The notes beneath the pieces are model-generated. The model saw nothing but the letters and a program-made list of their open reading frames with translations, was not told the DNA's origin and searched no databases. Source: Pseudomonadota bacterium (lineage in GTDB: Bacteria > Pseudomonadota > Alphaproteobacteria > Micavibrionales > UBA2020). From it: a stretch of DNA of 64,000 bases. The stretch is from positions 581 through 64,580 of the forward strand of contig JAEXMB010000033.1 of NCBI GenBank assembly GCA_023444705.1. The letters are read 5' to 3'. The position numbers and the translations under genes are program-made. Of the stretch, positions 30,307 to 57,403 are shown one piece after another (positions within the stretch are counted from its first letter, which is position 1; each line of letters begins with the position of its first letter).

Positions 30307-30340
30307 GACGGATGCTCGCTGTGTGCAAAAGTGAAACGCG

Positions 30341-30375: not shown

Positions 30376-30396
30376 GGGGAAGAAACTTGAAGCGTA

Positions 30397-31667: not shown

Positions 31668-31687
31668 GTTCTCTGTCCCTTCCCTGC

Positions 31688-32002: not shown

Positions 32003-32007
32003 AACTG

Positions 32008-32822: not shown

Positions 32823-32825
32823 ATC

Positions 32826-33245: not shown

Positions 33246-33331
33246 AAAGCCGCCTTCTCCTTGCTGTTGGCAATTTTGCCGAAAAGCTCTAAAATAAAGG
33301 GACCATAGACAGCGTCACCACAGGGGTACCC

Positions 33332-34362: not shown

Positions 34363-34371
34363 GCCCGACCG

Positions 34372-35348: not shown

Positions 35349-35417
35349 AGCCTCTCTCCTGCTTGATCAATCGTGCAAAAAGGGCAGGCAGGGCCCCCCG
35401 CCCGCCCTTTTGCCGTT

Positions 35418-35861: not shown

Positions 35862-36076
35862 AGTTATTTTCCTTTCGTGAAAAGAGGGGCATACAGGCCC
35901 GCACGTTCTGGCGGCGCAGAACCACACAGGGGAGATGCGGTTTTTCTGCGCCAAAGGCATGATGCGGGAGGGGAGCCCGAAAACTCATGCCGGACTGCGG
36001 CGGCAAACGCCGGTCATATTCGCCATGATGGCGGGCCTGTATGCAGACGGGAGCGCTATCAACGTCCCGCCAAGGC

Positions 36077-37363: not shown

Positions 37364-37390
37364 GTCTTGTTCCTTTTATGCTGTGAATGT

Positions 37391-38083: not shown

Positions 38084-38086
38084 CGC

Positions 38087-38386
38087 TTATCCCTCGTCCG
38101 TTGTAAAGACCCGCGCCAGCAACGACGCCACCGCACTGCGGTAACGCTCAAAACCCTGCGCAACCATGTCCTGCCCAAGCGCCATATAGTCGCAGGAACA
38201 TCCCGCGCGCGCCAAAAGGATATGGCAGAGGCTGACCAGCTCACCCGCCGTCCACGCACCCTGCGTCAGGCGCGCATACACCATGCCAAGACTGCCCATT
38301 TCATCTTCGATCTCGCAGATCGTGGCGAAATCAAGCGTGACACGATACAGCCGCTGCGCATACGCCAAAGCAATATCCGCACTCAT
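38087..38386 (-). CDS. small GTA g3.5-like protein between portal and protease
   Basis: I chose the start at ATG 38386, which is ATGA-coupled to the portal stop. 99 aa. The position matches the small ORF of GTA clusters. Confidence 0.45.
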   Translation of the reverse strand: MSADIALAYAQRLYRVTLDFATICEIEDEMGSLGMVYARLTQGAWTAGELVSLCHILLARAGCSCDYMALGQDMVAQGFERYRSAVASLLARVFTTDEG

Positions 38387-42368: not shown

Positions 42369-42815
42369 TTATTTCTTTTTTGACGGCTTGGCGGCGCCGC
42401 TTTTGTCGCGCGGCGAATCCGCGGGCATCGCGTCATCGTCTTCATCATCGCTGACGCGCTTGTAATTACGCGGGGTTTCCTCAACCGGCGCGTTTTTGAC
42501 GGCTTTTTTTTCGACCGCGCGCTCGCGCAGGCGTTTTTGGCAATCGGCATAAGGGGTCAGGGAATTGCGCTTGATCTCTGCCGACTCGTCCGGTCCAAGC
42601 TCTTCAAAGCATTTGCTGACCGAGGTCACCACATGCGACCCAGCCACGGGTACCTCGGCCTGCGCGGGTGCGGGGGCTTGCGGCGCTGCAGGCGGTTCGT
42701 ACTGCGCAGGTTGCTGGCGGTAATACTGCTCAAGCGCGGGTTGCTGTGCCACTGCCGCGGTGGCGAAAGCAACGCAGAAGAAAACAGCACCGGTAAGAAA
42801 ACGCATTAAGGCCAT
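42369..42815 (-). CDS. secreted protein, architectural paralog of 41589..42218
   Basis: Signal peptide MALMRFLTGAVFFCVAFATAAVA. P/Q/A-rich stretch. SKCFEELGPDESAEIKRNSLTPYADCQKRLRERA. Basic/acidic tail ending AAKPSKKK. Confidence 0.65.
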   Translation of the reverse strand: MALMRFLTGAVFFCVAFATAAVAQQPALEQYYRQQPAQYEPPAAPQAPAPAQAEVPVAGSHVVTSVSKCFEELGPDESAEIKRNSLTPYADCQKRLRERAVEKKAVKNAPVEETPRNYKRVSDDEDDDAMPADSPRDKSGAAKPSKKK

Positions 42816-44689
42816 GACGGCGGATACCCATAGGGATAGATTGGCACCTGACGCGGCGTATGCGTGCGGCCTGTTTTCTTAAGGTGCGCGTTAAACACCT
42901 CCATCAAGCGTTCCAGACGATAGCTATAGGCGATGTCATAGGGCGTGATGCTGTTCTGGTCGCGTGCCAGCGGGTCAAAGCCGTTATCAAGCAGATGACG
43001 CACTACGCCTTCCGCCCCTGCCGCGCGCGTGATCGCCATATGCAGCGGCGTGCGGCCATTGCTGTCGCGGGCATGCCTGTCACTGCCGTGGAACATCAAA
43101 CGGCGCACTTCCGCCAGCTGGCCGCTTTGCGCCGCCAGATGCAACGGCGTACGGCGGTTGCTATCGCGGGCAGAAACATCGGCCCCTTTGTTGACAAGCG
43201 CCGCCGTTACGTCTGCGCGCGCCATTGCGATTGAAAGGTGCAACGGCGAAAAACCGCTGTCATCCTGCACCTTGACGTTAGCGCCCGCCTTGATGAGTTC
43301 ATGCGCAACGCCCGCGTGTTCGGCGTGCAATGCCGCCAGCAGCGGTGTGCGCTGATATTTGTCGCGCGCCTCAAGCTCCGCCCCCGCCAAAACCAGACGC
43401 GCCAGCAACGAGGCCGACAGGCCATCGCCACCCCAATGCAGCACGTTGCGCTCTATTTTATCCTTGAGCGCAGGATTGGCACCTTGCTCGAGCATGATTT
43501 CGACCAGGTCGTAAAGGCTGTTGCTTGCCGCCATCATCAAAGGCGTCACGCCGTTTTTGTCCGCACGGTTGCCGTCGGCACCCTGCCCGAGCAAAATGCG
43601 TGCCGTGGCGCGCTGGCCTGCATTGACAGCTACCAGCAACGCACTGGCCCCATCCTTGCCGTCGGCGGCATCAAGCGTGGCGCCGTTTTCCAGCAGCAGA
43701 TAGACCAGTCCGGCTTTACCCGCCTTGGCCGCGATGTGCAGCGGCGTCATGCCTTTGTCGTCGTAGTGATTGGTCAGCGCGCCCTGCGTCAGCATTTCCT
43801 GCGCCAGCGCCTCGTGGCCAGCCTCGACCGCCAGATGCAATGGCGTGCGGCCTTCGTGATTGACGGCATTCAGCAGCTCCGCCGTCCAGCCCTGCAACAA
43901 GGTCATGGCACAGGCCGTGTCGCTGCGCTTGACTGCTTCGTGCAGGCAGGTCTGGCCGTCGTGCGTGGCGGCGTGCGGATCAAGACGGTAGTAAAGCAGT
44001 TTTTCAAGTGCGGCCTGATGGCCGCCGCGCACCGCGTAATGCAGTGCCGTCGCCCCCTTGCCGTCGCGCCGGTTGGGATCAGGCGTCGCTTCGACGATGC
44101 GCGCCAGCAGGTCAAGCGCGTTATTGACATTTCCAAGTTGCGCCGCCGCATGCAAGGGCAATACGCCGGCCTTGTTGGCCAGCGTCACGTCCGCGCCGGC
44201 ATCAAGCAGGATGGCAGCCAGACCTGCCGTTTCCGGTTTGGCCAATGCAACGTGCAAGGGTGTATCTGTGTTCTTGGCGGCCGTATTGGGATTGGCACCA
44301 CGTTCCAGCAACAACGTAACCAGCGGCAGCGAGCCCTGTTGAAGCGCGTGATGCAAAGCCGTCTGGCCCAGCTTGTCGGCGCGCTCGACATCCGCACCGC
44401 TTCTGACGATGCGTGTGGCAAGGTCGATATTGCCCGCGATGACCGCATCCATCAAAATGGTGCGCCCGCTGGCAGCGTCAGAGATACGGTCCGCATCACG
44501 CACAAACCCGCGGTTGCGCGGGGTCAGGCGGTCGTTATCATTGAGGGCAGCCGGCAGCGGCAACATATCCTTGCCGTCCGCTGCGCCAGTGCGCGCGGTC
44601 TTGTTCTTTGCGCTGCGCGTGCGCGGCTTGGCCGCGCGGCGGCTGTGCGTATTAAAGATATGCCGGTTTTTTCTGTGACGCATGGCCAT
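42806..44689 (-). CDS. large ankyrin-repeat protein (about 15 repeats), candidate effector
   Basis: Repeats such as GQTALHHALQQGSLPLVTLLLERGANPN, GRTPLHLAVEAGHEALAQEMLTQGA and GRTPLHMAITRAAGAEGVVRHLLDNGFDP. Confidence 0.9.
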   Translation of the reverse strand: MAMRHRKNRHIFNTHSRRAAKPRTRSAKNKTARTGAADGKDMLPLPAALNDNDRLTPRNRGFVRDADRISDAASGRTILMDAVIAGNIDLATRIVRSGADVERADKLGQTALHHALQQGSLPLVTLLLERGANPNTAAKNTDTPLHVALAKPETAGLAAILLDAGADVTLANKAGVLPLHAAAQLGNVNNALDLLARIVEATPDPNRRDGKGATALHYAVRGGHQAALEKLLYYRLDPHAATHDGQTCLHEAVKRSDTACAMTLLQGWTAELLNAVNHEGRTPLHLAVEAGHEALAQEMLTQGALTNHYDDKGMTPLHIAAKAGKAGLVYLLLENGATLDAADGKDGASALLVAVNAGQRATARILLGQGADGNRADKNGVTPLMMAASNSLYDLVEIMLEQGANPALKDKIERNVLHWGGDGLSASLLARLVLAGAELEARDKYQRTPLLAALHAEHAGVAHELIKAGANVKVQDDSGFSPLHLSIAMARADVTAALVNKGADVSARDSNRRTPLHLAAQSGQLAEVRRLMFHGSDRHARDSNGRTPLHMAITRAAGAEGVVRHLLDNGFDPLARDQNSITPYDIAYSYRLERLMEVFNAHLKKTGRTHTPRQVPIYPYGYPPSWP

Positions 44690-44713
44690 GCCTCCATAAA
44701 AAACAATCGCGCG

Positions 44714-45826
44714 TCAGCGCCCGAAACGCGGTGGTGCCTTGGGGCCGACGAATTTCTTTTCCTCAATCAGGGCACGGTGCGCCTTCTCGAAATGGTCGCG
44801 CAGCCGGAAAGATTCTTCGCTCTTCATGAAATCGTAAAGCTCGCGATGGTTCTGCTGGCTGACAAGGTCAGCGGCGGTTTGCCCGCTTTTGTTTTGCGCC
44901 AGCGCATCAGCACCCGCGACCAAAAGCTCGATCGCAATTTCGTCATAACCGCGTCGCGCCGCGGCCATCAATGCTGTTTCGTCATACATGTCAGGCATCG
45001 GCGCATCCACCGTGGCGCCTGCTGCCAGCAAAATTTTCACGCAATCAATCTGCTTTTTGATCACGGCGGTATGCAACGGTGTATGGCCGCTGGCATTGCG
45101 TGCATCAATATCGACACCATGATCGATCATGGCCTGCAAAACAGCGATACGCCCGTCCGCCGCCGCCAGATGGAACGGCGTCTGCCCTTCGTTATTCCTG
45201 CATGTCGCATCAGCACCCGCCTGCAACAGCGCAACGGCATGATCGGAGGTATTGCGCCCCGCCGCCAGATGCAAGGCCGTCGCGCCGTCCTTGGTACGGC
45301 GCAGTTCAACCAGCGCACCGGCATCAAGCAAGGCCGCAATCATATCCTCGCGCGGGGCCGACAATGCCGCCAGCAAGGGCGTATCGGCACTGATGTCCTT
45401 GTTGACCAGAAGGCCGCCGGTGTTCACACCCATGCCACGGCCTGTGCGTAACAAGACGCCAAGCGCTTCGGGCTTGTTGGCATCCACCGCATACAGCACG
45501 GCGTTAAAATCACCCGTGACGATGCTTGCACCAAGGTCGCGCAGGCAGGCGACGGTTTCACTATCGCCGTCGCTGATCGCATAGGCCAGCGCGGGCAGAC
45601 CTGCGGCGTTTGGCATATCGGGTACCGCGCCCAGCGTTTTAACCGCCTCGACGATGCGGGCCTTGCCTGCCTTCTGACGGCACAATTCGTGCAAATAGGT
45701 ATTGCCTTCGGACGTAACAGGCTCGTTGACCTGTTCAGGCAGAGGGCGCGGCACAGTGACCGCCGCCGTCTCGGGGGCGGTATCGGGGGCGGTGGTCTCT
45801 GCCGGTTTGTTGTCTTCTTCTTGCAC
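44714..45826 (-). CDS. ankyrin-repeat protein, candidate effector
   Basis: GQTPFHLAAADGRIAVLQAMIDHGVDIDARNASGHTPLHTAVIKKQIDCVKILLAAGATVD. Confidence 0.9.
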   Translation of the reverse strand: MQEEDNKPAETTAPDTAPETAAVTVPRPLPEQVNEPVTSEGNTYLHELCRQKAGKARIVEAVKTLGAVPDMPNAAGLPALAYAISDGDSETVACLRDLGASIVTGDFNAVLYAVDANKPEALGVLLRTGRGMGVNTGGLLVNKDISADTPLLAALSAPREDMIAALLDAGALVELRRTKDGATALHLAAGRNTSDHAVALLQAGADATCRNNEGQTPFHLAAADGRIAVLQAMIDHGVDIDARNASGHTPLHTAVIKKQIDCVKILLAAGATVDAPMPDMYDETALMAAARRGYDEIAIELLVAGADALAQNKSGQTAADLVSQQNHRELYDFMKSEESFRLRDHFEKAHRALIEEKKFVGPKAPPRFGR

Positions 45827-45869
45827 AGTGTGCCGTCCTTGCTTTATCGGTTCATCAGTATGGTTTATT

Positions 45870-47111
45870 TCAGCGCGGCTTTGAAGGGTAAAAACCCCCG
45901 CGCCCGCGTCTGGTGCGCACGGGTGCCGCGCGCATATTTCTTCTGCCGCGGCGCAGTTTGGCAGAATCCGGCCATTTGCGCTGTGCGTCCATAACGATCT
46001 TGCGCGTCATCTGCTGCATCGGCGCCTGGCACACCATATCGGGTGTGCGCATTCTGCTGTCGGCGATCGTCGGGTCAGCACCCGCATCAAGCAAGGCGAT
46101 CACCGTGTCGCGGCGGTTATGGTGCGCTGCCAGCCACAAGGGCGTCTGGCCCAGGTGATTGCGCGCATTGAGGTCATGCGGCGCCAGCGCCAGCACGCGC
46201 AGGAACAGATCATGGCGCATGCCGCGCGCCGCGATATGCAGCAGTGTGGTGCCATCATTGCGTCTGGCCTGTGGCGGCACGCCCGCCGCCAGCAAATAAT
46301 CAAACGCCTGCACCCAGCCTTTCTCTGCCGCGAGCATCAGCAAGGTTTCCCCGCCCGCGCTGGCGGTTTGCAACATATCCGCCCCCGCATCATGCAGACG
46401 GCGCAGCAAATCAGCGCTTTCAACCATGCTGGTGCGGTGGCAGATCAGGAATTGCACCGGTGTCTGCCCGTCGCTGCCGCGGGCATTGATGTTGATCCCG
46501 TAGTCGATCAGCACATCAAGAAGATCCGCGCGTTGCGCCGCCAGCACGGCGCGCAAAGTATCAATGCGCAGGCCTTTTCGCGCATATGTCGTGTGGACTG
46601 CCAGCGCCTGCGGACTGCGCAACAGCAGGCGCAGGATTTCCGGCGTGCTGTCCGCCGCCAGATGAAAGGCATTCATCTCGTTACGGTCGATGTCATAGGC
46701 CGCCAGTGCGGGGTTGGCGCCGTAATGGAGCAGCCATGCCACCGCTTTTGCATCGCCCGCTATCACCGCCTGATGCAACATGGTCAAACCGCGCGGACCA
46801 TAAGCGTCGATATCTGCCCCGTGGTCGAGCAACATGACCGCACTGCCGCTTTGCCCCGCACGCAACGCCGCATGCAACGGCGTCAGGTGGCTTGCGCACC
46901 GCGCATCGGCGTCACAACCCGCGCGCAGCAGCGGTTCGATCAGCGCCGTACAGCCGCGCCGCGCTGCCACATGCAAAACGCTTTCACCGTTGTCATAGCG
47001 ATAGCTTGCCACATCGCCACGCTCTGCAGGCGCAAGCGCCTGCCATATGGCCATGATATCATCAGCACTCTGGCTTGTCAGTGCGCGCGCAAACGCCGCC
47101 ATAGTATTCAT
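45870..47111 (-). CDS. ankyrin-repeat protein, candidate effector
   Basis: GESVLHVAARRGCTALIEPLLRAGCDADARCASHLTPLHAALRAGQSGSAVMLLDHGADID. Confidence 0.9.
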   Translation of the reverse strand: MNTMAAFARALTSQSADDIMAIWQALAPAERGDVASYRYDNGESVLHVAARRGCTALIEPLLRAGCDADARCASHLTPLHAALRAGQSGSAVMLLDHGADIDAYGPRGLTMLHQAVIAGDAKAVAWLLHYGANPALAAYDIDRNEMNAFHLAADSTPEILRLLLRSPQALAVHTTYARKGLRIDTLRAVLAAQRADLLDVLIDYGININARGSDGQTPVQFLICHRTSMVESADLLRRLHDAGADMLQTASAGGETLLMLAAEKGWVQAFDYLLAAGVPPQARRNDGTTLLHIAARGMRHDLFLRVLALAPHDLNARNHLGQTPLWLAAHHNRRDTVIALLDAGADPTIADSRMRTPDMVCQAPMQQMTRKIVMDAQRKWPDSAKLRRGRRNMRAAPVRTRRGRGGFYPSKPR

Positions 47112-48547
47112 GGCTGGCGGCCGCCCGGCCCGTAATGCCCACGAAACAGCGGTTTGACGTCACGGCGCAGCGCTTCGGCAAGTATGGGAACGGTCTGCTC
47201 TTTGGCGCGCATATTGACTTGCGCGTAATACATCGCTGAATGCCCGTTGTTATCGAGCAGGCGCGGATTGGCCCCCGCCTGTAACAGCTCGCGCATCGTG
47301 TCGCCCTGCCCCAATGCTGCCGCAATCATCAGCGGCGTGCGCGCATCATGGTCATGGCGCGCGTTGGGGTCCGCACCGGCGGATAAAAGATTGGTGATTT
47401 CATGCAGGCTCGACCCTTCGATCGCCAGCATCAACGCGGTGGCGCCGTCGCGGCTGCGTACATTCACACGCGCGCCATAGCGCAAAAAGACCGACAGCGT
47501 TGCTGTCACGCCGCCAAAAGACATCAGGCGGTGCAACGGCGTTGCACCGCTGTGCGGGTCGTGCGCATTGACATCCGCACCCGCTTCGATCAGCAGGCGC
47601 GCGATCTGCGCGCGCACGTCATCGTTCATGCTGCGAATACCCGCCAGATGCGCAAGCGGGGTCGTCTGCAATTGTTTAAGCACCCCCTGGCCCGTTGCCA
47701 TCACCGGACGGCAGGCATCTGCCCCCTTGGCCAGCAGGACCGCAACCAATGCCGCGTCAGCGCGGTTGATCGCCAGCAACAGCGGCGTCATGCCGTCATC
47801 GCGCGCAAGATTGACCAGCGCGCCGTCATCGATCATGGCATCGACCAATGCCGCATCCGCGCGCATGACCGCAAGGTGGAACAGCGTGCGTCCCTCGCGG
47901 TCGCCGGGCAGGCGCGCGTTAAGGTCGGCGATAATTTCGCGCTGGCGCAACAAGCTTTGCGCGGCAACGGTTTTTTTGGCATTGAGAGCGGCCATCATCG
48001 GCGTGACGTGCAGCGCACTTGGCGTGCGCAAATCCACGCCCGCCGCGGCAAAGGCCAGGATGACATCACCCATGTCTTTTTCGCAGGCGCGGTGCAACAG
48101 GTCTTGCGTGGCCTGCATATTGTCGGGGCAACCGCCACATGTGATCAGCGTGGCGGCGGCGGCGGCCTTGCCGAAATGAATCGCGTCTTGCAGCGGTGTG
48201 CGGCCTGCATCGTCAGCGATACCACGGCGCACATCCGCACCGGCGCGCGCCAGCAGGGCGATCATGTCGGCGCGGTCAGCGCGCGCTGCGATATGGATGG
48301 CGCTTTCGCCGCTGGCGTTGGTCGCATTGGGGGACATTCCCGCCGCCAGTTGCGCGCGCACCCCTGCGCTATCACCGTTTTTCACCATGCGAAAGAAGGC
48401 ATCAACATCGCTTTGCGGGGTCAGCGCGGCGGTTTTCAAACGGTTGAACAGACTGCCCAGCACGCCTTCACTTTTTGGTTGCGCGTCGTCACCACCCGAA
48501 GGGGCGGCACTGTTTTTCGGGTCTGGCGGTCGTGGTGTAAATGACAT
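47108..48547 (-). CDS. ankyrin-repeat protein, candidate effector
   Basis: GESAIHIAARADRADMIALLARAGADV and GATPLHRLMSFGGVTATLSVFLRYGARVNVRSRDGATALMLA. ATGA-coupled to the next gene. Confidence 0.9.
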   Translation of the reverse strand: MSFTPRPPDPKNSAAPSGGDDAQPKSEGVLGSLFNRLKTAALTPQSDVDAFFRMVKNGDSAGVRAQLAAGMSPNATNASGESAIHIAARADRADMIALLARAGADVRRGIADDAGRTPLQDAIHFGKAAAAATLITCGGCPDNMQATQDLLHRACEKDMGDVILAFAAAGVDLRTPSALHVTPMMAALNAKKTVAAQSLLRQREIIADLNARLPGDREGRTLFHLAVMRADAALVDAMIDDGALVNLARDDGMTPLLLAINRADAALVAVLLAKGADACRPVMATGQGVLKQLQTTPLAHLAGIRSMNDDVRAQIARLLIEAGADVNAHDPHSGATPLHRLMSFGGVTATLSVFLRYGARVNVRSRDGATALMLAIEGSSLHEITNLLSAGADPNARHDHDARTPLMIAAALGQGDTMRELLQAGANPRLLDNNGHSAMYYAQVNMRAKEQTVPILAEALRRDVKPLFRGHYGPGGRQP

Positions 48548-48548
48548 C

Positions 48549-48625
48549 GCTTGAACACTGAAAAGACGCGCATGACGCGCATGATGCGCGCGGGGCGTGA
48601 CGGCAATAACGTAGAGTGTTCAAGT
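48549..48625 (-). promoter_or_regulatory. long-range hairpin with nested GC palindromes in the leader of the 479-aa ankyrin gene
   Basis: CTTGAACACT (48550-48559) is the exact reverse complement of AGTGTTCAAG (48615-48624). The proximal arm ends 2 nt before the start codon at 48547. Inside, GCGCATGA occurs as a direct repeat, with a GCGCA/TGCGC palindrome followed (on the minus strand) by TCTTTTC. Confidence 0.45.
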
Positions 48626-48706
48626 CATAGCACCCGCGGCTGGGGGTGACAACCGTTTATGACAAGATTATCCGCTGATTTGTAATTATATTATAGTGTT
48701 ATGTTA

Positions 48707-49237
48707 TTATGGTGCGGGTTTTTGGCCAGCACCTTTGAATGCCGCCTGCGGCGCGCGCAAGGTCACTTCTTTTTTAAGCGCCATGTCTTCTTCACCTTGC
48801 GGATCGGGCAAGGCCGCCAGCAAGCGCGTGCTGAGTTTCTTTTGCCCTTCGTTAAGGTCCCATCCCTCGGATTTGCGTTTACGCATTTGCGTTAGCAGAA
48901 TTTCAAGCGCGCTTTCCTTGCCGAGAGTAAGGTTCGGGTCCGCGCCACGGTCCAGCAAGGATTGCGCAGCACTCAGATGGTCGTTGCGGACATAAGAAAT
49001 CAAAAACGTATCGCCGTCAGGCTTGCCGTTGACACTGGCATTGATGTCCGCGCCTGCCGCCAGCGCAAGATCGATCATATCCCAGTGGTGGGTGGCGTGG
49101 CCCTGCCGCAAGACCGCCTGCGCATCCGCACCTTTATCAAGCGCCTGTTTAAGCATCGTCAGATCCTTGGTTGCAAAACAAACATCAAGCGCAAGGGCAA
49201 GCGCGCGCTTCACATTTTCGGGGTTGGCGGTATTCAT
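48707..49237 (-). CDS. short ankyrin-repeat protein, candidate effector
   Basis: I chose the start at ATG 49237, which is ATGA-coupled to the upstream HExxH gene. Sequence LKQALDKGADAQAVLRQGHATHHWDMIDLALAAGADINA. Tail GAGQKPAP. Confidence 0.7.
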   Translation of the reverse strand: MNTANPENVKRALALALDVCFATKDLTMLKQALDKGADAQAVLRQGHATHHWDMIDLALAAGADINASVNGKPDGDTFLISYVRNDHLSAAQSLLDRGADPNLTLGKESALEILLTQMRKRKSEGWDLNEGQKKLSTRLLAALPDPQGEEDMALKKEVTLRAPQAAFKGAGQKPAP

Positions 49238-50229
49238 GCGACCCTCATGCTGAAACTGTAGCCGGACATTTTGGGGTCGCGCGCCCTTTGCCGCGGAACG
49301 CGGATATTCGACAGGCGTAAAATATCCTGCCACTCCTCGCTGTGCCGCGCCTGGTCCTTGATGAATTCTTTGACCGGCGGATAGTTCAAGAACCGCTTTC
49401 CTGCCTTGATCACGTCGGCGTTATCTGCGGATGCATGCATGACCTTGGCCGTTTCGCGGCAGAACAGCGCATACGCCTCCTCATCACGGCCATAGAGCGC
49501 CCTGACAATGTTGTGCGGCGTTTCATAGCGTTGGTGATATGCTTGCGCCGCATCGTTGAACTTCATGGCAAGCAGATGGTGCGATATGCGCGTATGCATA
49601 TGTCTGCCCACGATATCGTGCGCCAGCGCCGCTGTTTCGTCGAGCGATAGCGCGCTGATGTCGTGCTTGCACGCATGCCTGCGCACAGCCGCCAGAATAT
49701 CGTCGGTATAATGAATAGGCGAGGTACCAAGCACCAGCGTACTGGCCTTGTTCGCGTATTTGAAAAAGTCGCTATCAAGACCAAAGCGCTGGATGTGGCG
49801 CAGGGCCGCAAAAGCATCGGCACGGCATTCGCCTTCATGGCCGCCGATCATCCCGCGCTCCATCACCTGATGGCCGATTTCGTGGTCGAGTACATAGAGC
49901 GTGCGCATTTCAAGCGTATAGCGCGGCGTGAACACCCCGGGCATCTCGCGCAACAGGCCGATCATCTTGATCCCCGCCACGCCGCCCAGTACGGTGGGAT
50001 GATACGCCATGCCCGCAGCGTTGCGTTTTTTGATATATGCGCTTTCCTGATGGATGCGTGCGCGCAGGGCACGCGTTTTCTCGCTCAGGTCATCGGCGAT
50101 CGCGCTCGAGATAAAAACAGGCGCGTCGCTGTCGGTGACGAAAACGACCAGACGCTGCAGACGCTCGGGAAAGCTCTGACAGGCATCGCGCAGGGAGTGC
50201 TGCACTGTGGTGTGAAGATCGTTTTGCAT
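49234..50229 (-). CDS. HExxH-motif protein (putative zinc metallopeptidase), paralog 1
   Basis: YVLDHEIGHQVMERGMIGGHEGECRADAFAALRHIQRFG. Alignable along its whole length with 50385..51341. Confidence 0.7.
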   Translation of the reverse strand: MQNDLHTTVQHSLRDACQSFPERLQRLVVFVTDSDAPVFISSAIADDLSEKTRALRARIHQESAYIKKRNAAGMAYHPTVLGGVAGIKMIGLLREMPGVFTPRYTLEMRTLYVLDHEIGHQVMERGMIGGHEGECRADAFAALRHIQRFGLDSDFFKYANKASTLVLGTSPIHYTDDILAAVRRHACKHDISALSLDETAALAHDIVGRHMHTRISHHLLAMKFNDAAQAYHQRYETPHNIVRALYGRDEEAYALFCRETAKVMHASADNADVIKAGKRFLNYPPVKEFIKDQARHSEEWQDILRLSNIRVPRQRARDPKMSGYSFSMRVA

Positions 50230-50235
50230 GCGGCA

Positions 50236-50264
50236 AGAATAAACGATTCTTGTTTATATGTAAA
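50236..50264 (-). promoter_or_regulatory. promoter positioned for a leaderless mRNA (HExxH paralog 1)
   Basis: Minus strand reads TTTACA (50264-50259), 17 nt, TATTCT (50241-50236), 6 nt, ATG. No Shine-Dalgarno sequence. The 13-mer TTTATATGTAAAA (50253-50265) is shared with paralog 2. Confidence 0.5.
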
Positions 50265-50384
50265 ATAATAAAAGGGCAGGCGGGTTGTGTTAAATTATTG
50301 AATATAATCAATGGATTATCTATTAATTCGGTTTGTGCAACGCTGGGTTTTACTCATCGCGTCACCTTGTATCTGCGTCTTGTC

Positions 50385-51341
50385 TCACGCACCGTGTTTT
50401 TTCATGGCTGGCGTTGGGGCTTTCGAAAGGTCGGCGATGCGCCGCCACGCAGGGTCGGCTTTGGCACGGGCAGTGATAAAATCATGCACTGGCGGGAAAT
50501 TTAAAAAGCGTTGTCCGGCACTTATAACACGCGCATCGGCAGGGTGGGCACGCATCACGCTTGCCGTTTCACGGCAGAAAACTTCATATGCGTCATGGTC
50601 CCTGTCATAGAGCGCGTCAACAAGCTCTTTCTTGCCGCCACAATGGCGCACGGCCATGCGCGCAGCTGGCCTGAATTTCTTTGCCAAGCGGTGAATGTCA
50701 GCAGAGCCAACAGGCAACGAGCGGACAAGACGGTCGGCTAAACGCGCAGTTGCCGCAAGCGGTAAGCCGCTAATATCATTGTCGCGTGCATAAGCGCGCA
50801 CCGCTTCCATGATGTCAGTCGTGTAATGGACAGGCGATGTCCCCAGCACGACCGAATGCGCACGCGTCATCAAGACAAAATAATCCGTGTCAAAGCCATA
50901 GCGCTGAAGATGGCGCAACGTTGCAAAAGCATCCGCGCGGCATTCGGCTAAATAACCGCTGACCATCCCCCGCGGCACAACCTGATGACCGATCTCATGG
51001 TCAAGGACGTAAACGCTGCGCATGTCCTTGGTATAGCGTTTGTTGAAAACGCCTGACACATCGCTGTGTACACCAATCATCTTCACCATATGCCCTGCAA
51101 CACGCATCGGATGATAGGCCATGCCAACACAGTTGCGACGCTTGATATAGGCTGTTTCCCGCGCGATCACACGACTGACTTCCTGCGTCGCCGAAGACAG
51201 CTTTGCCGCTGTTGCAGGTGCGAGATATACCGGCGTTTTTGCATCGGTCATAAAAAGAAACAACGTGCGCAACTGCCGCGGAAAAGCGTCATAAGCTTCG
51301 CGGGCGGTTTGTTCGAAAATGGCGCCGAGCTCTTTTTGCAT
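50385..51341 (-). CDS. HExxH-motif protein (putative zinc metallopeptidase), paralog 2
   Basis: YVLDHEIGHQVVPRGMVSGYLAECRADAFATLRHLQRYG. Further shared blocks are ETAYIK(K/R)RN..GMAYHP and VLGTSP(I/V)HYT.DI..AVR. Confidence 0.7.
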   Translation of the reverse strand: MQKELGAIFEQTAREAYDAFPRQLRTLFLFMTDAKTPVYLAPATAAKLSSATQEVSRVIARETAYIKRRNCVGMAYHPMRVAGHMVKMIGVHSDVSGVFNKRYTKDMRSVYVLDHEIGHQVVPRGMVSGYLAECRADAFATLRHLQRYGFDTDYFVLMTRAHSVVLGTSPVHYTTDIMEAVRAYARDNDISGLPLAATARLADRLVRSLPVGSADIHRLAKKFRPAARMAVRHCGGKKELVDALYDRDHDAYEVFCRETASVMRAHPADARVISAGQRFLNFPPVHDFITARAKADPAWRRIADLSKAPTPAMKKHGA

Positions 51342-51347
51342 CAGGCT

Positions 51348-51377
51348 ATATTACCCGATTCATTTTTTATATGTAAA
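51348..51377 (-). promoter_or_regulatory. promoter positioned for a leaderless mRNA (HExxH paralog 2)
   Basis: Minus strand reads TTTACA (51377-51372), 18 nt, TAATAT (51353-51348), 6 nt, ATG. The identical 13-mer TTTATATGTAAAA is at 51366-51378. Confidence 0.5.
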
Positions 51378-51434
51378 ACATTTATAGGGAGATTTTGTCG
51401 GCTAAAAAAGTATTTTAAATCAGCACTATAGGTA

Positions 51435-51959
51435 TCAATTGGGTTTTCGCGGCGGCGGTTTTGCACCACTCTTGAGGTTCTGGCGGCCCGTCATCATCAC
51501 GCGCAGGCGCTCGGCGGCGGCGGGGTTGTCGTCCCACAACGCCATGTAATCGCGTGCGGTCCAGCCCTGCTTGTCGGCGATATCGTCACGTGCGCCCGCA
51601 TCCTTGAACAACGCGATGATGTCCGCACGCGTGCGCAGGCCGCCCGACACGGCCGCCGCATGCAGCGGCGTCCAGCCGTGATCGTCCACCCGCGCAACGT
51701 CGGCACCGGCCTTGAGCAACAGACGCACAATATCGCTTTCACCCCAATAGGCTGCTTCGTGCAGGGGTGTGGTGCCGCCATCCGCCGCCTGATTGGGATC
51801 GGCGCCGCGGCGCAAACGGTCGCGCACTTCACTGCGGTTTCCCGCACGCACCGCACGATAGAGCGCGCTTTCACCGCGCGCATTGCGCGGGTCGCGCCCG
51901 CCATGCGTCATGCGGTTAAAGCGGTCGGTGATGGTGTCAAGAAACGAAAGTGGTTTCAT
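51435..51959 (-). CDS. ankyrin-repeat protein, candidate effector
   Basis: AGAGGA RBS before ATG 51959. Sequence GTTPLHEAAYWGESDIVRLLLKAGADVARVDDHGWTPLHAAA. Tail AKPPPRKPN. Confidence 0.85.
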   Translation of the reverse strand: MKPLSFLDTITDRFNRMTHGGRDPRNARGESALYRAVRAGNRSEVRDRLRRGADPNQAADGGTTPLHEAAYWGESDIVRLLLKAGADVARVDDHGWTPLHAAAVSGGLRTRADIIALFKDAGARDDIADKQGWTARDYMALWDDNPAAAERLRVMMTGRQNLKSGAKPPPRKPN

Positions 51960-52128
51960 GGCGCAAAAAAGTCCTCTGGCCATTACTCTACGCGAAAAAA
52001 GACAGTATCACCAAGCTTTGCCCGATCTGAACACCGCGCAGACCAGCGCGATGTTGCAGTGCATGCACCACAAACTCTTGACGGTGCCTTGATTGACGGC
52101 TGATTTTTTCGCAATGCAACAGCGTGGA

Positions 52129-53118
52129 TTATTGCTCCGGGCTGACCGCCGCAAATTCGCTGTCGTTGAACAGTTGCGCCGAATCGGCAATGAAATCCTG
52201 CGCGCTTTGCGCCACGGCAAAGCGCGACAGACCCGGCGACAGCGTGCTTGAAAACGGCGGTACCGGGTTAAAACCCATGTTGCTGATCGCCGACAGACTG
52301 ATAACGCTGATCATCAGACCGACCGCAAACGATAGCGCCGCCTGCCTGCGCTTGCGCGCGGACAGCATTGTCGCCGCCGCAAGACAGGCCGAGGTCAGCG
52401 TCGCAAGCAATACCGTCTGTGTCAATATGGTCGCCGCTTGCGATGCCAGACTACCGCTCAGCAAAAAGTCAACGCCGCGCAGCGCCATGCCCGTCACCAG
52501 CGAGGCGATGACATAGACGCTGGCCAGCGACAGCTGTTGCGCAAAGCGCGAGCGATGCGTCAGCAACCGCCCCACCACCGACCACATCGCCGCCCAGACC
52601 ACGATAATCATGAATACGGCCGCCACGCTCATGGCGGCGGTCATTGCGGCTTCGCTGCTCCAGATTTCAAGGTATGACCATCCCGCCGTCAGCGCCAGCG
52701 CCAGCGCGAACAACGCGGCCGCCACCGGCATGCGCCCCAGCGAGGAGCGAAGCCCCCCGTTCTGCGCCATCGGCAACGCCGCCGCAACGGCGTAATCGCT
52801 GGCATAGGCCGCGATGACGGTTTCCCCCGCTTCGACTACATCGCCCGAGGCCAGCGGCGTCCATTGCCCCGCCGTCAACACGCGTGCGTTGAGCAAGGTG
52901 GGATTGACGCTGTCAAGCGCACAGATTTCCCACGGCGTTTTGGCATCCGCCGCATCGTTGGCGCGAATGATGTATTGGCGTGCCGCCAGATAGGGATCGG
53001 CGACGATAACGTCACAGGCAGGGCTGCGGCCCACAACCACGGGCAGGGACGTGATCTTTTCGTGATGCGTGCGCACGCTGTCAGTCAGGGGCGCGATTGC
53101 AAGGACCATCATGCTCAT
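52129..53118 (-). CDS. FHA-like domain protein with a polytopic membrane C-half
   Basis: The N-terminus VVVGRSPACDVIVADPYLAARQYIIR...WEICALDSVNPTLLNARVL...LASGDVVEAGET follows the FHA pattern, with substitutions at the usual Ser/Asn positions. About 6 TM segments follow. Confidence 0.65.
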   Translation of the reverse strand: MSMMVLAIAPLTDSVRTHHEKITSLPVVVGRSPACDVIVADPYLAARQYIIRANDAADAKTPWEICALDSVNPTLLNARVLTAGQWTPLASGDVVEAGETVIAAYASDYAVAAALPMAQNGGLRSSLGRMPVAAALFALALALTAGWSYLEIWSSEAAMTAAMSVAAVFMIIVVWAAMWSVVGRLLTHRSRFAQQLSLASVYVIASLVTGMALRGVDFLLSGSLASQAATILTQTVLLATLTSACLAAATMLSARKRRQAALSFAVGLMISVISLSAISNMGFNPVPPFSSTLSPGLSRFAVAQSAQDFIADSAQLFNDSEFAAVSPEQ

Positions 53119-54560
53119 GGCGCCACCATCCCGTCCGGCGACTTGTCCATCACGCTGTCGCCTGCAGGCGCGACGACGTCGCGGACATCCGGCGCATCCC
53201 CGCGTGCGGGTGCGATTTCAGAGATAAACCGCGACATGAATGCCTGCGCGTTGTCGCGCGTCACCCCGAGCGCATTGACGGTGATGACGACACCGGTGCG
53301 CGGCGCATCGACCATCGCCATATAAAGATGCGCGTCGAACAACGACGGATATTTGGTGTATTGGCGCACGCAATACGATGTCTTGAAGCGATGGCCCGCC
53401 TGATCGACGAAGCCGTCATGGCAGGCAAAGTTGCCGACATCGCCTTCGCCTGCGTTGCTTGATTCAACGCTATTTGAATACAGCCCTTCGTAAAAGCTGT
53501 AAAAACGCGCCGTCCACATCTCAGGCGACGGTGTCACCAGGTCATAGCGGTAAAAGTACACGCCCGTTTCAAACGTATCACTGAGGAACAAGCTGTCCTC
53601 GTTATAGCAGGTCGACCAGAAATGCGTGTAGGGGTCCTTGTCTTCATGCGCGGGCGCACCCCAGCATTTCAATGCAGGATGCAGACGGCCCGGCAGCGAC
53701 AGCGGCCCAAAAGTCATGCTGTCCCACGTGTGCGCGGGGTCGAGCATGGTCTTGATGATCGACGACTGGCTGGCGTCAAGCTGTGCTTCGATATCGGCAT
53801 GCGCACGCGTCAGGAAATCGCCCGCCATATCACCCGTCATATCACCCGTTTGGCCGCTGTTGCGGTATTTTGCGACCAGTGCGGCAAGCGCTTCGACCGG
53901 CACCAGAAAACCGATCTGGTTGCCGCCCGTCATGACGTTGATCCCCACAACGCGGCCATCGCCTGACAGGGCGGGCCCGCCGCTCATGCCCTGGTTGATC
54001 GCACCGGAAAAGTGAATCTTGTCGTGGAACGTATCCGAAGCCATGCCATTGTGGATACCCTCGACGATCGTAAAGCCGATGTCGTGCGGGTTGCCAAGCG
54101 CAAAGACGCGCGTGCCCTTGCGCAGGTCGGACGTGCCGAGCATGACAAAAGCCGGCCCCGCCTTGTCCATGCGCAACAGCGCAAGATCATTGACGACATC
54201 AACACCCACCAGCGACAGCGCGCCGCGCGTGCCGTCCTCGTGCAGGTATTCTAGGCGGTTGTTGGCCGGGCGGTTGATCATGTCGGACACGACATGGTAG
54301 TTCGTCGCCAGCAAGCCCTGCGCATCGATCTGAAACCCGCTGCCAATCGCGGCTTTCTTGCCCGAGGCGCGGTCGATGACCTGTACCTGATAGACGGCCG
54401 CGCCATGATCCTGATACATGCGCTCCGCCGCATCCGTCAGCGGCGGTTGCGGCGCGGTGACGCCTTGCGCCGGTGTGTCCGTTTGCGCACGCGCGGGCGG
54501 GGACAAGAAAGTTGCAGCCAAAAGCAAAGCACAGGCAAGTGATCGTGTGTATGTGGTCAT
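53115..54560 (-). CDS. secreted trypsin-like (S1/HtrA-class) serine protease with an unknown Cys-containing C-terminal domain and no PDZ recognised
   Basis: Signal peptide LACALLLAATFLSPPARA. Triad contexts ATNYHVV (His), NDLALLRM (Asp) and GMSGGPAL (Ser). About 250 extra C-terminal aa. ATGA-coupled to the FHA gene. Confidence 0.8.
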   Translation of the reverse strand: MTTYTRSLACALLLAATFLSPPARAQTDTPAQGVTAPQPPLTDAAERMYQDHGAAVYQVQVIDRASGKKAAIGSGFQIDAQGLLATNYHVVSDMINRPANNRLEYLHEDGTRGALSLVGVDVVNDLALLRMDKAGPAFVMLGTSDLRKGTRVFALGNPHDIGFTIVEGIHNGMASDTFHDKIHFSGAINQGMSGGPALSGDGRVVGINVMTGGNQIGFLVPVEALAALVAKYRNSGQTGDMTGDMAGDFLTRAHADIEAQLDASQSSIIKTMLDPAHTWDSMTFGPLSLPGRLHPALKCWGAPAHEDKDPYTHFWSTCYNEDSLFLSDTFETGVYFYRYDLVTPSPEMWTARFYSFYEGLYSNSVESSNAGEGDVGNFACHDGFVDQAGHRFKTSYCVRQYTKYPSLFDAHLYMAMVDAPRTGVVITVNALGVTRDNAQAFMSRFISEIAPARGDAPDVRDVVAPAGDSVMDKSPDGMVAP

Positions 54561-54865
54561 GGACCCTGATATTTCGCGGAGGATAGACAGCTTGCGCCAG
54601 TCTGCACGTCCCGGTCTTTAATGTATACAGCCGCGTCCATACGGGGCACCTCGCCGGATTGTTTACAGAATCTGGTATTTTTCCATTTTCTGCGTGCAAC
54701 GCGTCAATTTTTTGCATTGATTGCGCCTGCGGTTATCCAAACGTAGCAAGATTACACTTTTCCGCCTTTTTTCGTTTTTACGGGGTTGTCCACAGGTCGC
54801 CTGCTTGCTACGGTTTTGCGGTATTCAAAACGGGACCCGCCGACGTGAAAAAGTTTTTCAACGCC

Positions 54866-56284
54866 ATGTCCGACCGCACCAGCCGCGATCTTGACCGGAT
54901 CGGCAGCAAGGGTCTGACGCGCCTGCAACAGGCCGCGGATGAAAACGACACCGACCGCATCCGCCTGCTGTTGCGCCGCAAAGCCGACATCAACGAAACC
55001 GGCCTGTGCGGCGAAACCGCCCTGCACCGCGCCGCGCGCCACAACAACTACAGCGCCGCGCGCCTGCTGGTCGATATGGGTGCCGATGTCAACCTGCCTG
55101 ACGCGCAGGGGCAAACAGCGCTCCACAATGCCGTCCTGCATGGCAACACGATGATCGTCGCCCGCCTGATCGAAGCCGGCGCAGACGTCAACATCGCCGA
55201 TCACGAGGGCCGCACCGCCATGCATATGGTGCCGCGCGGGTGCGAGGATATTTTCACCCAGCTGGTGGCGCAGGGCGGCGACGTCAACGCGCTCGACAAG
55301 CAAGGCTATCCGCCGCTCAACTACCATCTGCGCCACGACAGGCTGGTCACGGCCATCATCAATCTTGGTGCCGACCCCAATCTTTCGACGACACAGCCAT
55401 CGCCACTGGTCACCGCACTGAGCATCCCTTTGCTGGCCACACATCCCGCAATCATCAGAAGCCTGCTGGCAGGCGGCGGCGACGTTAACGCGCGCAGTGC
55501 GTCAACGGGCGAACCGCTGATCCACCTTGCCGCACGCAGCGGCCAAAACGCCCTGCTGGTCGAAGCCCTGGCGCGCAAAGCCGACGTCACCGCAACCGAT
55601 CCCGCGGGCATGACCGTCGCGCATGCGCTGGCGCAACTGCCCCAGCCCGACCTGATGCGCCTTGTACTGTTGCGCGCGCCCGATCTTGCGCGCACACGCG
55701 CCAAGGACGGCACCACGCCGCTGCATCTGGTCGTGCAGCATCTGACGCAAACGCCGTTGCGCGGTGCCGAAACCCATGTCGCAACGCTGGTGCAACTGGC
55801 GCAACTGCTGATCGAATACGGTGCCGATCCTTCGACCGCCACCACCAACGGCACGACCCTGCTGCACGAGGCCACGACGCGCAACATGCCGGGCTTCATT
55901 GATTTCCTTGCCAAGCATAAGGCGGATTTCAACCTGCGCGACCAGCAGGGCAACGCCGCGCTCAATGTCGCGATCACCGCGCGCAATGTGGAACTGCTCG
56001 ACCGCTTGCTCGACCACGGCGCCGATCCGGACCTTACGGATGCACGCGGCTGGACAGTGCTTGACCGCCTTGCTGAAAAGAAAGACCGCGAAAGCCCGAT
56101 CGTGCAACGCCTGATCGTGGCGGGCGGGCAATACAACAAACAGTTGCCCCTCTACCCCGATCTGATCCGTCCGCGCAAAAACACAGCTCCGGCCCCCGCC
56201 AATGACACCGCGCCCAAGCCAGCGCCCGAGACTATTGTCTCGCCGATCAAAAAGATCATCAAGCGCCAGCCACCAACAAATTAA
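54866..56284 (+). CDS. ankyrin-repeat protein (about 12 repeats), candidate effector
   Basis: GETALHRAARHNNYSAARLLVDMGADVNLPDAQGQTALHNAVLHGNTMIVARLIEAGADVN. I chose the start at ATG 54866. Tail KIIKRQPPTN. Confidence 0.9.
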   Translation: MSDRTSRDLDRIGSKGLTRLQQAADENDTDRIRLLLRRKADINETGLCGETALHRAARHNNYSAARLLVDMGADVNLPDAQGQTALHNAVLHGNTMIVARLIEAGADVNIADHEGRTAMHMVPRGCEDIFTQLVAQGGDVNALDKQGYPPLNYHLRHDRLVTAIINLGADPNLSTTQPSPLVTALSIPLLATHPAIIRSLLAGGGDVNARSASTGEPLIHLAARSGQNALLVEALARKADVTATDPAGMTVAHALAQLPQPDLMRLVLLRAPDLARTRAKDGTTPLHLVVQHLTQTPLRGAETHVATLVQLAQLLIEYGADPSTATTNGTTLLHEATTRNMPGFIDFLAKHKADFNLRDQQGNAALNVAITARNVELLDRLLDHGADPDLTDARGWTVLDRLAEKKDRESPIVQRLIVAGGQYNKQLPLYPDLIRPRKNTAPAPANDTAPKPAPETIVSPIKKIIKRQPPTN

Positions 56285-56392
56285 TACAAAACAACAACTT
56301 AACCGTTCACCGTGCGGCCAATCCGCTGTTGACGCAGTTCTGCTTTATGACTAAACTCTGTTTTACCTAATAACAAAGCAGATTCTTGCCCC

Positions 56393-57403
56393 ATGTCATC
56401 CAGCGAAAACGACAGCACCGGCGGCTCCGCGCGCAGTGCCTATAACAGTGCCGCCATAAGCGGCGACGACGGCACGACCAGCGTTGACCCCCTGGCCGAT
56501 CTGCCGCCGCGCGTGCGCGACTTTTTGCGCAATGCCGATGTCGCGCAACCGCTCAAGGATCTGTGCCTGCACATTCTCCCTGCTGCCGATTTTGCAACTT
56601 TCAAAAGACGTCTTGATCGCGGTGACTTTGACGCCCACCTGACCTGTGATGCGCACCCAATGGGCGGTCTGCTTGCGCAACTGGCGGCGGCCCCCAAGGA
56701 ACTTGGCAACGACTGGCTACAAGCCGTGGCACAACGCGAGGCTTTCGCCGTCGATGCGCTCAGCGTCCCCTACTATTACACGGGAAGTTATTACAGCAGT
56801 CACATCAAGGACTATACCGGCCAAAGCGTGTCACAACGCCCGCTTGGCAGCTGGATGCTCGGCCATCGCAGCATGAAATACCCCGATCTCGCGCAATTCT
56901 GCGCGCGCCTGCTTGCACATGAATACAAAGCCAATGACGTATCGCAACCGATCGCCCATCACGCGATTTACGGCACGCCGACGCTTGAATACCTGCGCGA
57001 CTTCGCCGACAAGGCAGGCACGCTTGACTTCATCAACGTAAAAAACGCCAATGGCGAAAGCGTTTTTTACCGCCTTGCAACCAATAAAAACCTCTATAAC
57101 CACGCATCGACGCTGAATGTGCTGAGCTGGCTGCTGGAGCGCAAGCCCGAGCTGATCCACACCACCGACGATGCCGGCTGGACGGCGCTTGACCGCTATG
57201 TCCTGCAGATGACGGTGCAAAGCGGCGTCTCGCAAGCCGTCACCACCGAAAGCGGTATGCTGCGCCTGTTGCTTGCATCGGGCGCGCAGTTCCGCCGGCA
57301 AACGCCGCCGGGCATGTCACTGGTGGACTATCACAATAATCAGCAGACGACCACGCTGCTCGGCAAACCGGCAGCGGCAGGCCCGATCAAACGCAAACCC
57401 TAA
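56393..57403 (+). CDS. hypothetical protein with 2-3 C-terminal ANK-like repeats, candidate effector
   Basis: NANGESVFYRLATN...LNVLSWLLERKPELIHTTDDAGWTALDRYVLQ. Tail AAGPIKRKP. Confidence 0.6.
   Translation: MSSSENDSTGGSARSAYNSAAISGDDGTTSVDPLADLPPRVRDFLRNADVAQPLKDLCLHILPAADFATFKRRLDRGDFDAHLTCDAHPMGGLLAQLAAAPKELGNDWLQAVAQREAFAVDALSVPYYYTGSYYSSHIKDYTGQSVSQRPLGSWMLGHRSMKYPDLAQFCARLLAHEYKANDVSQPIAHHAIYGTPTLEYLRDFADKAGTLDFINVKNANGESVFYRLATNKNLYNHASTLNVLSWLLERKPELIHTTDDAGWTALDRYVLQMTVQSGVSQAVTTESGMLRLLLASGAQFRRQTPPGMSLVDYHNNQQTTTLLGKPAAAGPIKRKP

Follow-up and report, generated by a model that had tools for sequence, protein, structure and literature searches.

Paralogous HExxH proteins and their predicted leaderless promoters in an alphaproteobacterial ankyrin-gene island

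Two neighbouring genes on the minus strand of a 64 kb stretch of alphaproteobacterial DNA (from contig JAEXMB010000033.1; the whole stretch is referred to here as the window) encode paralogous proteins that carry an HExxH motif. The genes lie in an island of ankyrin-repeat genes, and each is preceded by a sigma-70-type promoter sequence whose -10 hexamer ends 6 nucleotides (nt) before the ATG. The best overall explanation, which we hold with moderate confidence, is that the two are old duplicates encoding metallopeptidases that would be expressed from leaderless promoters, associate with an ankyrin partner and be exported by a type IVB secretion system.

The gene pair and its protein family

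Copy 1 (49234-50229, minus strand) is an open reading frame (ORF) of 331 residues, also supported by the family alignment and a confident structural model. Copy 2 (50385-51341, minus strand) encodes 318 residues and has no coupled ankyrin gene downstream. As proposed in an earlier, sequence-only reading of this DNA, the two ORFs align end to end, with 47% identity across 312 aligned residues (E=1e-99). Both contain YVLDHEIGHQV followed by ECRADAF, the ECRAD lying 14 residues past the second His. In copy 1 the HEIGH occupies residues 116-120 (nt 49870-49884) and E134 and Y174 are encoded at 49828-49830 and 49708-49710; the predicted catalytic residues of copy 2 are all intact. The start codons of both copies are secure because in-frame stops are located 27 nt (copy 1) and 12 nt (copy 2) 5' of the ATGs and the family N-termini line up on the annotated Met of both. 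The earlier claim that the proteins have no N-terminal signal peptide also holds. Hydropathy and the model revealed no signal peptide or membrane segment; the maximum Kyte-Doolittle score of an 11-residue stretch is 1.0 in the first 40 residues, and residues 2-19 form a confidently modelled helix within the fold.

A word-indexed search retrieved 57 relatives, and an exhaustive profile search extended the family to at least 754 clusters at 50% identity, 150 of which have E below 1e-30. The named relatives are all "hypothetical proteins" from uncultured Alphaproteobacteria, Rhodospirillaceae or Micavibrio metagenome-assembled genomes (MAGs). The HExxH and downstream Glu first noticed in the two copies form the conserved core of this family: when 129 diverse members are aligned, H116, E117, H120 and E134 do not vary, and G119, A137, G150, Y174, A203 and G277 are conserved in at least 90% of them (about 90% for Y174). 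D138, which completes an E-x-x-x-D motif, is invariant in the 14 closest members. The HExxH is present once in 178 of the 190 members retrieved, and the spacing from the second His to the Glu, 14 residues here, ranges from 13 to 26 family-wide. The full-length members P0094, P0109, P0145, P0165, P0181 and P0183 have lost the HExxH (e.g. LDYQLSRH, QDYVLGQL) and keep the Glu helix and an "ALRHIQRFG" motif; such members are probably pseudo-enzyme offshoots.

The family had not been recognised from the sequence, and no library recognises it either. No consistent family emerged from Pfam scans of both copies (E up to 0.1) and of all 57 members (E up to 10). The HExxH proteins had no match in NCBIfam, PADLOC or PHROGs, and PDB sequence searches using the single sequence or profiles of 57 and 129 sequences found nothing below E=0.05. 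The best PDB profile matches were non-significant (E=0.3-0.6): ADAMTS-5, an M48 protein and the thermolysin-like neutral protease 1npc, all zincins aligned around the HExxH helix, the 1npc match covering query positions 112-147. M48, M78 (ImmA/IrrE), M85, M91 and DUF4344 gave no score over the Pfam gathering threshold. The strays below it were M48 in one of the 57 members (E=0.019) and DUF4344 in one distant member (E=0.002, 18 bits versus a cut-off of 29.6). A scan of ten of the longer members found no fused domains.

The structure of copy 1 was predicted by AlphaFold2 using the family alignment (mean predicted local distance difference test, pLDDT, 94; predicted template-modelling score, pTM, 0.91). 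Strands 27-31, 73-81 and 84-92 are followed by a helix (106-122) bearing the HExxH and by a second helix (131-149) that opens with E134. The C-terminal half is all-helical and ends in a disordered tail (pLDDT<60). This order of elements, with an HExxH/ExxxD/Tyr signature, is that of gluzincins such as thermolysin and neprilysin. Foldseek comparison of the full model and of the separately predicted N-terminal domain (1-164) with the PDB, and of the full model with BFVD, found no neighbour; no match had E<0.08, the best having E of at least 0.8, and the template-modelling score was at most 0.32. The fold comparison suggested in the earlier reading gave no tie to any established MA family. The signature is gluzincin-like, as judged from sequence and model, and the proteins are placed in no known family; the term gluzincin refers here to the motif and the predicted topology only, because there is no significant homology to a characterised peptidase.

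As in thermolysin (M4) and neprilysin (M13) of clan MA(E), the HExxH helix lies behind a small β-sheet, the putative third-ligand Glu opens the next helix as E-x-x-x-D (ECRAD here, NEAISD and GENIAD in M4 and M13), and a conserved Tyr or His further downstream could stabilise the transition state. Unlike those enzymes, the family has a shorter His-to-Glu spacing, an unrelated C-terminal helical domain, neither pro-peptide nor signal peptide, and no significant hidden Markov model (HMM) or Foldseek similarity to them. In the proposed mechanism, the N-terminal α/β domain of these soluble, ~330-residue proteins would carry a gluzincin-type metal site consisting of the HExxH helix, an ExxxD opening the next helix and a Tyr ~40 residues on; the all-helical domain and a basic, disordered tail would follow. 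The proteins, which have no Sec signal, would be synthesised in the cytoplasm as active zinc metallopeptidases, zinc binding and proteolysis being predicted from the motif.

Synteny with the window is seen in four metagenomic contigs (L026-L029), which have one HExxH gene each. In a neighbour-joining tree copy 2 joins this syntenic clade in 199 of 200 bootstraps, at its base and not as the sister of copy 1, and the two copies pair in 4 of 200. A recent tandem duplication is therefore rejected, and the ORFs would descend from one ancestral gene by an old tandem duplication. This event may be older than the split of these genomes, with loss of one copy elsewhere; otherwise copy 2 diverged fast. 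The promoter was copied along with the gene because the two upstream regions align over ~110 nt, which agrees with the duplicated promoter originally proposed.

Tandem arrays also occur in other alphaproteobacterial MAGs. L032 (4997-7976) and L033 (5003-9198) have three or four genes of ~320-356 codons without a Pfam match, located between MaoC-dehydratase and acyl-CoA dehydrogenase genes and without ankyrin neighbours. One gene per array is a confirmed family member; the others are assumed to be paralogues from their length and the lack of a Pfam match. P0042 and P0044, both confirmed members, share a contig.

The promoter blocks and the predicted start site

The promoter block of copy 1 (50230-50265, minus strand) begins with TTTTACATAT at 50265-50256, which holds the -35 hexamer TTTACA (50264-50259). 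A 17-nt spacer containing GAATCG (50249-50244) leads to the -10 hexamer TATTCT (50241-50236) and a GC-rich discriminator, TGCCGC (50235-50230), which places the predicted +1 at the A of the ATG at 50229. The block of copy 2 (51342-51378, minus strand) has the same plan: TTTTACATAT at 51378-51369 with TTTACA at 51377-51372, an 18-nt spacer with GAATCG at 51361-51356, the -10 TAATAT at 51353-51348 and a 6-nt discriminator, AGCCTG, before the predicted +1 at 51341. The hexamers, their spacing, the missing Shine-Dalgarno sequence and the identical 13-mer TTTATATGTAAAA described from the sequence alone are all confirmed. At a 6-nt gap the -10 spans -12 to -7 and the -35 spans -35 to -30 relative to the A of the ATG; since these positions follow textbook geometry, a +1 on the AUG is expected.

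The arrangement is specific to the two genes. TTTACA-N16-19-TAnnnT-N5-9-ATG occurs exactly twice in the 64 kb versus 0.03 expected, and none of 100 shuffles reached two. The 13-mer is found in the window only at 50253 and 51366, even with one mismatch allowed (0.03 expected). No GGAG, GAGG or AGGA core is present in the 20 nt 5' of either ATG; by a lenient scan Shine-Dalgarno-like cores, several of them strong, precede 33 of the 56 other window genes. Among the 57 genes counted in the promoter survey, the two HExxH genes are the only ones that combine a TAnnnT at -12 with a 5/6 match to the -35 consensus. In the predicted fold the mRNAs begin with 9-20 unpaired nt, and the RNA structure is non-significant (z=-1.1 and -0.6).

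A TAnnnT about 12 nt 5' of the start codon is a published in-silico marker of bacterial leaderless genes (PMC3160421). Both copies show it, with no Shine-Dalgarno sequence and an AUG start. In this they resemble the "TA-led" genes, lambda cI and the many leaderless genes of Actinobacteria, Deinococcus and Caulobacter. They differ in that the arrangement is gene-specific (2 of 57 window genes) rather than genome-wide, in the unusually long invariant block (TTTTACATAT and GAATCG), and in that the start site here is a predicted one. From sequence, the HExxH genes are probably transcribed as leaderless mRNAs.

The comparison of six genes from five genomes, the two window copies and the four syntenic orthologues, points the same way. 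All six have TTTTACATAT-N6/7-GAATCG-NN-TAnnnT followed by 6 to 8 nt and the ATG. The -10 is TATTCT in copy 1, TAATAT in copy 2 and TATCCT in L026, each 6 nt from the ATG; it is TATTCT in L027 (8 nt), TATGCT in L028 (7 nt) and TATCAT in L029 (7 nt). Within it T-12, A-11 and T-7 alone are fixed, the profile expected of a working -10, and the stretch from it to the ATG is GC-rich and varies in sequence and length as for an unconstrained discriminator. The start codon is ATG in all six genes. Conservation of the promoter exceeds that of the gene behind it: 19 of its 36 positions are invariant, but four-fold degenerate sites have reached saturation, with a pairwise identity of 30-45% and just 2 of 43 sites agreeing in all six genes. 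Another, distinct clade of the family (L003, L005, L006) has TTTACC/G-18-(TGg)TAATGT-7-ATG, again without a Shine-Dalgarno sequence, so the leaderless-type geometry noted in the window recurs both in the syntenic orthologues and outside them.

According to this model each copy would keep its own sigma-70-type promoter made of TTTACA, a 17-18 nt spacer, TAnnnT and a 6-nt GC-rich discriminator. The mRNA would begin at the AUG, be translated without a Shine-Dalgarno sequence and be controlled mainly at transcription initiation. The invariant TTTTACATAT and GAATCG suggest a dedicated DNA-binding regulator; because both exceed what sigma-70 needs, they probably serve a regulator as well as the polymerase.

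The inverted repeat CAAGAAT-N5-ATTCTTG (50234-50252, minus strand), a perfect 7-bp repeat overlapping the -10 of copy 1, had been proposed as a possible operator. It is present, yet it arises where the conserved GAAT meets the ATTC of the copy 1 -10; copy 1 alone has it in perfect form, copy 2 lacks it and the orthologues have degraded versions, and its RNA fold is not significant (z=-1.1). It was rejected both as an operator and as a hairpin. The search for a 13-mer regulon also went against expectation: the 13-mer and a looser box were found solely in front of family genes and nowhere else in the window or related loci, and a metagenome-wide scan with the 19-base promoter pattern gave 20 matches, all in low-GC contigs and none preceding a family gene, which is the chance expectation. 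Further upstream, an AT-rich element (50289-50311, minus strand; about -82 to -60 from the copy 1 ATG) starts with TTGAT, and its TGAT core is kept in all six upstream regions. Promoter-like matches associated with it are TAGATA-17-AATAAT and TTAACA-17-TATTAT. Its candidate roles are those of an activator site, an UP-like element and an alternative promoter. Alternative sigma factors, examined by eye (extracytoplasmic function-type GGAAC/CGTT, sigma-54 and sigma-32), were rejected because their spacing puts the start site inside the conserved N-terminal coding region.

Public gene calls start P0003 (L027 4638-4667) and P0004 (L028 6001-6012) at ATGs inside the promoter, within TTTTACATATG and TATGCT, which adds 10 and 4 spurious residues; this is a typical annotation artefact for genes without a Shine-Dalgarno sequence. 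Elsewhere in the window, a gene for a helix-turn-helix, S24-peptidase (LexA/cI-like) repressor (19061-19750, minus strand) has a very AT-rich upstream region and an internal ATG at codon 14 with TATGCT at -13. That ATG could be a leaderless start, as in lambda cI.

The ankyrin partner, the destination and rival explanations

Copy 1 is followed by a gene for a small ankyrin-repeat protein (48707-49237, minus strand; 176 residues; Pfam Ank E=5e-5). The partner's ATG (49237-49235) overlaps the copy 1 stop (49234-49236) by 4 nt as ATGA, and a GAGGG Shine-Dalgarno sequence of its own lies 4 nt upstream. The coupling reported in the earlier reading is conserved: a 4-nt overlap (ATGA or GTGA) and the partner's own Shine-Dalgarno sequence are found in all five genomes. 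Copy 1 would be co-transcribed and translationally coupled with this rapidly co-evolving protein, which is probably a partner serving as adaptor, inhibitor or chaperone. Neither copy 2 nor the homologues in L030-L033 have this partner. Similar ATGA overlaps join the trypsin-like/FHA pair and the ANK479/ANK413 pair, so that such coupling is a general feature of the island.

The syntenic order is an HtrA-like protease, an FHA/membrane protein, an ankyrin protein of ~175 residues, the HExxH protein, the small ankyrin protein (~177 residues) and four larger ankyrin genes. The ankyrin gene upstream of the pair (51435-51983, minus strand; 182 residues) holds the same position in all syntenic loci. 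Identity between the window and these loci is 50-56% for the HExxH protein and 55-65% for the small partner, versus 58-85% for every other gene compared in all four. By this sequence comparison the HExxH gene is the fastest-evolving gene of the ankyrin island and its partner is next. Such rapid joint change would be compatible with an effector and a partner evolving alongside it, or with an enzyme and its inhibitor. A strict toxin-immunity pairing is argued against by the ATGA overlaps elsewhere in the island and by the lack of a partner for copy 2 and distant homologues. The pair resembles the Imm-ANK genes of polymorphic toxin systems and effector/metaeffector pairs in gene order (enzyme, then small ankyrin gene), 4-nt overlap and fast evolution, and differs from them in having no toxin-delivery domain and in the patchy presence of the partner.

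The HtrA/DegP-like serine protease gene (53115-54560, minus strand) encodes a signal peptide and is the best-conserved gene of the cluster (80-85% identity); an HtrA-like gene also follows a distant family member in L020. The FHA-domain protein gene (52129-53118, minus strand; 65-74% identity) overlaps it by 4 nt (ATGA), and its product has a hydrophobic C-terminal half that probably spans the membrane. Altogether the window has at least 11 ankyrin-repeat genes (within 42806-49237, 51435-51983, 54659-56284, 59547-62245, 22766-23371 and 9668-10207), and four other metagenomic contigs have a block syntenic with 42806-56284.

The same window encodes parts of a secretion system. dotD (7268-7906; E=6e-35), a dotC/TraI-like gene (5998-7290; E=9e-71) and a dotB-type ATPase gene (4799-6019), all on the minus strand, form a dotD-dotC-dotB operon (4799-7906) in the Legionella gene order. 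The three components seen belong to a type IVB (Dot/Icm-like) system or an I-type conjugation system. An SLT transglycosylase gene (8009-8497, minus strand) lies next to the operon, and a TcpQ-domain protein is encoded at 2606-3898 (minus strand). Uncultured Alphaproteobacteria and Micavibrio MAGs widely carry DotC homologues, at 60-89% identity. The GC185 MAG holds both P0008 and a DotC homologue, and we take another DotC homologue to share a contig with the family member of L020; because DotC homologues are found alongside P0008 and L020, the family co-occurs with a chromosomal type IVB system.

Among 158 family members the last 25 residues have a mean net charge of +3.2, with a positive value in 91% of them; the remainder of the protein is neutral, at an average of -0.13 per 25 residues. 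The tails are disordered, Pro-rich and basic and resemble T4A-type signals, features that are common in type IV substrates but unspecific. The proteins would most likely be exported, together with the many ankyrin proteins of the island, through the type IVB (Dot/Icm-like) system that this window encodes. That the HExxH proteins are secreted type IVB substrates, plausibly effectors, is a tentative conclusion, one that we regard as quite possible without leaning on it.

Small soluble HExxH proteins without a Sec signal are known as effectors, Legionella RavK and Escherichia coli NleC and NleD among them. As here, their genomes encode a dedicated secretion system along with numerous eukaryote-like (ankyrin) proteins, and they show fast evolution and paralogue expansion. 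The present family differs in that no peptidase family, M85 and M91 among them, came close to significance in Pfam scans, that the tails are basic and Pro-rich with no E-block, and that its translocation is a prediction.

Several observations weigh against the explanation as a whole. The Legionella-type E-block is not seen in the family tails. Many members in other genera have a normal leader and Shine-Dalgarno sequence (AGGAG-type sites), and many sit among housekeeping genes without ankyrin neighbours. In the promoters, the invariant 10-mer and GAATCG go past sigma-70 requirements; the TTAACA-17-TATTAT site upstream of copy 1 scores better than the block itself (10/12 matches) and would give a Shine-Dalgarno-less leader of ~29 nt; and a box similar to that of the HExxH genes, TTTTACCTAAT...GATTCT, sits downstream of a strongly conserved TTGACG-17-TAAACT promoter in front of gene 56393-57403. 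Lastly, no significant sequence or structure link connects the family to any characterised peptidase, and some of its full-length members are without the HExxH. Three rival explanations draw on these points.

First, the protease may stay in the bacterial cytoplasm and be no effector at all, acting as a regulatory or quality-control metallopeptidase or as a toxin-like enzyme. In the toxin-like variant the coupled ankyrin protein would be an inhibitor, an immunity protein or a substrate adaptor. Both forms are unlikely, though they survive better than the other rivals. They gain from the absent signal peptide, from the 4-nt coupling in five genomes of what is the fastest-evolving pair in the cluster, from the ATGA overlaps in the two other island pairs, and from distant members that adjoin acyl-CoA dehydrogenase, MaoC and enoyl-CoA hydratase genes; in addition, the Micavibrio-like relatives are not known to be eukaryote symbionts. 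They are countered by copy 2 and most of the distant homologues, which have no coupled ankyrin gene and show in this way that the enzyme needs no immunity partner, and by the lack of a PADLOC or toxin-family match. Moreover, the basic disordered tail and the co-occurrence with DotC fit a type IV secretion substrate better.

Second, the mRNA may have a leader after all. It would start at the upstream AT-rich promoter, lack a Shine-Dalgarno sequence and be translated by S1-type, Shine-Dalgarno-independent initiation, and TTTTACATAT...GAATCG...TAnnnT would be an operator for a repressor or activator, or an element of the 5' untranslated region. The TTAACA-17-TATTAT of copy 1 ends 1 nt ahead of the box, L028 has TTAAGT-17-TGgTAATGT at the same place, the TTTTACATAT 10-mer is inverted upstream of a distant homologue in L001, and the conserved spacer bases GAATCG are not explained by sigma-70 contacts. 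A related box also occurs inside a probable leader. The upstream region of a conserved 336-codon gene (56393-57403; region 56330-56395, plus strand) has an invariant TTGACG-17-TAAACT promoter followed by a leader of ~35 nt that lacks a Shine-Dalgarno sequence and contains TTTTACCTAAT...GATTCTTGCCCC-ATG, an arrangement kept in L026, L028 and L029. The leader sequence is similar both to the HExxH promoter box and to the 11 nt immediately 5' of the copy 1 ATG; the two boxes may be sites of a shared regulator. By its spacing the box in front of gene 56393-57403 is no promoter; it may instead act as an operator or as a leader element. The comparison of the six genes speaks against a leader: the upstream hexamers are conserved in neither sequence nor position, whereas TAnnnT is fixed 17-18 nt from TTTACA and 6-8 nt from the ATG, as a real -10 predicts. 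The 6-8 nt before the ATG are GC-rich and variable, which is poor for Shine-Dalgarno-independent initiation and typical of a discriminator, and no significant RNA structure is predicted. A leadered mRNA is thus rather improbable, and less probable than a cytoplasmic enzyme.

Third and weakest, the HExxH site may be no peptidase centre and belong to a zincin-like hydrolase of a non-peptide substrate or to a structural or pseudo-enzyme scaffold, a reading favoured by the absence of homology to any MEROPS or Pfam peptidase and of a fold match, by several full-length members that keep the "ALRHIQRFG" helix without the HExxH, and by a conserved C-terminal helical domain that matches no known function, but made very doubtful by the H, E, H, E and Y that are held together in motif-bearing members, by an ExxxD after the HExxH as in thermolysin/neprilysin-type gluzincins (where the 1npc profile match is non-significant), and by the pseudo-enzyme offshoots that true enzyme families commonly have.

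Wider setting and significance

The ankyrin island is directly adjoined by a phage- or gene-transfer-agent-like head-tail cluster (25797-41138, minus strand) that includes a large terminase (39663-41138), a portal (38383-39675) and a 1388-residue protein (25797-29963). Between the type IVB genes and this cluster lies a gene for a ClpB/ClpV-like double-AAA+ ATPase (15299-17986, plus strand; 895 residues) with no Clp_N match.

Leaderless expression and HExxH effectors are not new in principle. What is new is an undescribed family within the zincin-like enzymes; its leaderless signal is ordinary in kind though unusually well conserved. The most far-reaching interpretation, a speculative one that is improbable in its full form, joins an orphan-fold metallopeptidase family acting as type IVB effectors, a hyper-conserved leaderless promoter, a dedicated regulator of TTTTACATAT-N6/7-GAATCG and an ankyrin partner that restrains or guides the enzyme, all within a Micavibrio-related radiation with chromosomal Dot/Icm systems and ankyrin islands.

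The promoter offers a clean comparative example of selection on leaderless architecture, and the case illustrates the wrong starts that gene callers assign to genes of this kind. Provided that the proteins are active, they would represent a sizeable unclassified branch of zincin peptidases (at least 754 clusters at 50% identity) with a fold not found in the PDB. As the fastest-evolving gene of a conserved ankyrin island that accompanies a Dot/Icm-like system, the HExxH gene is a candidate host- or prey-directed effector of a poorly known alphaproteobacterial lineage.

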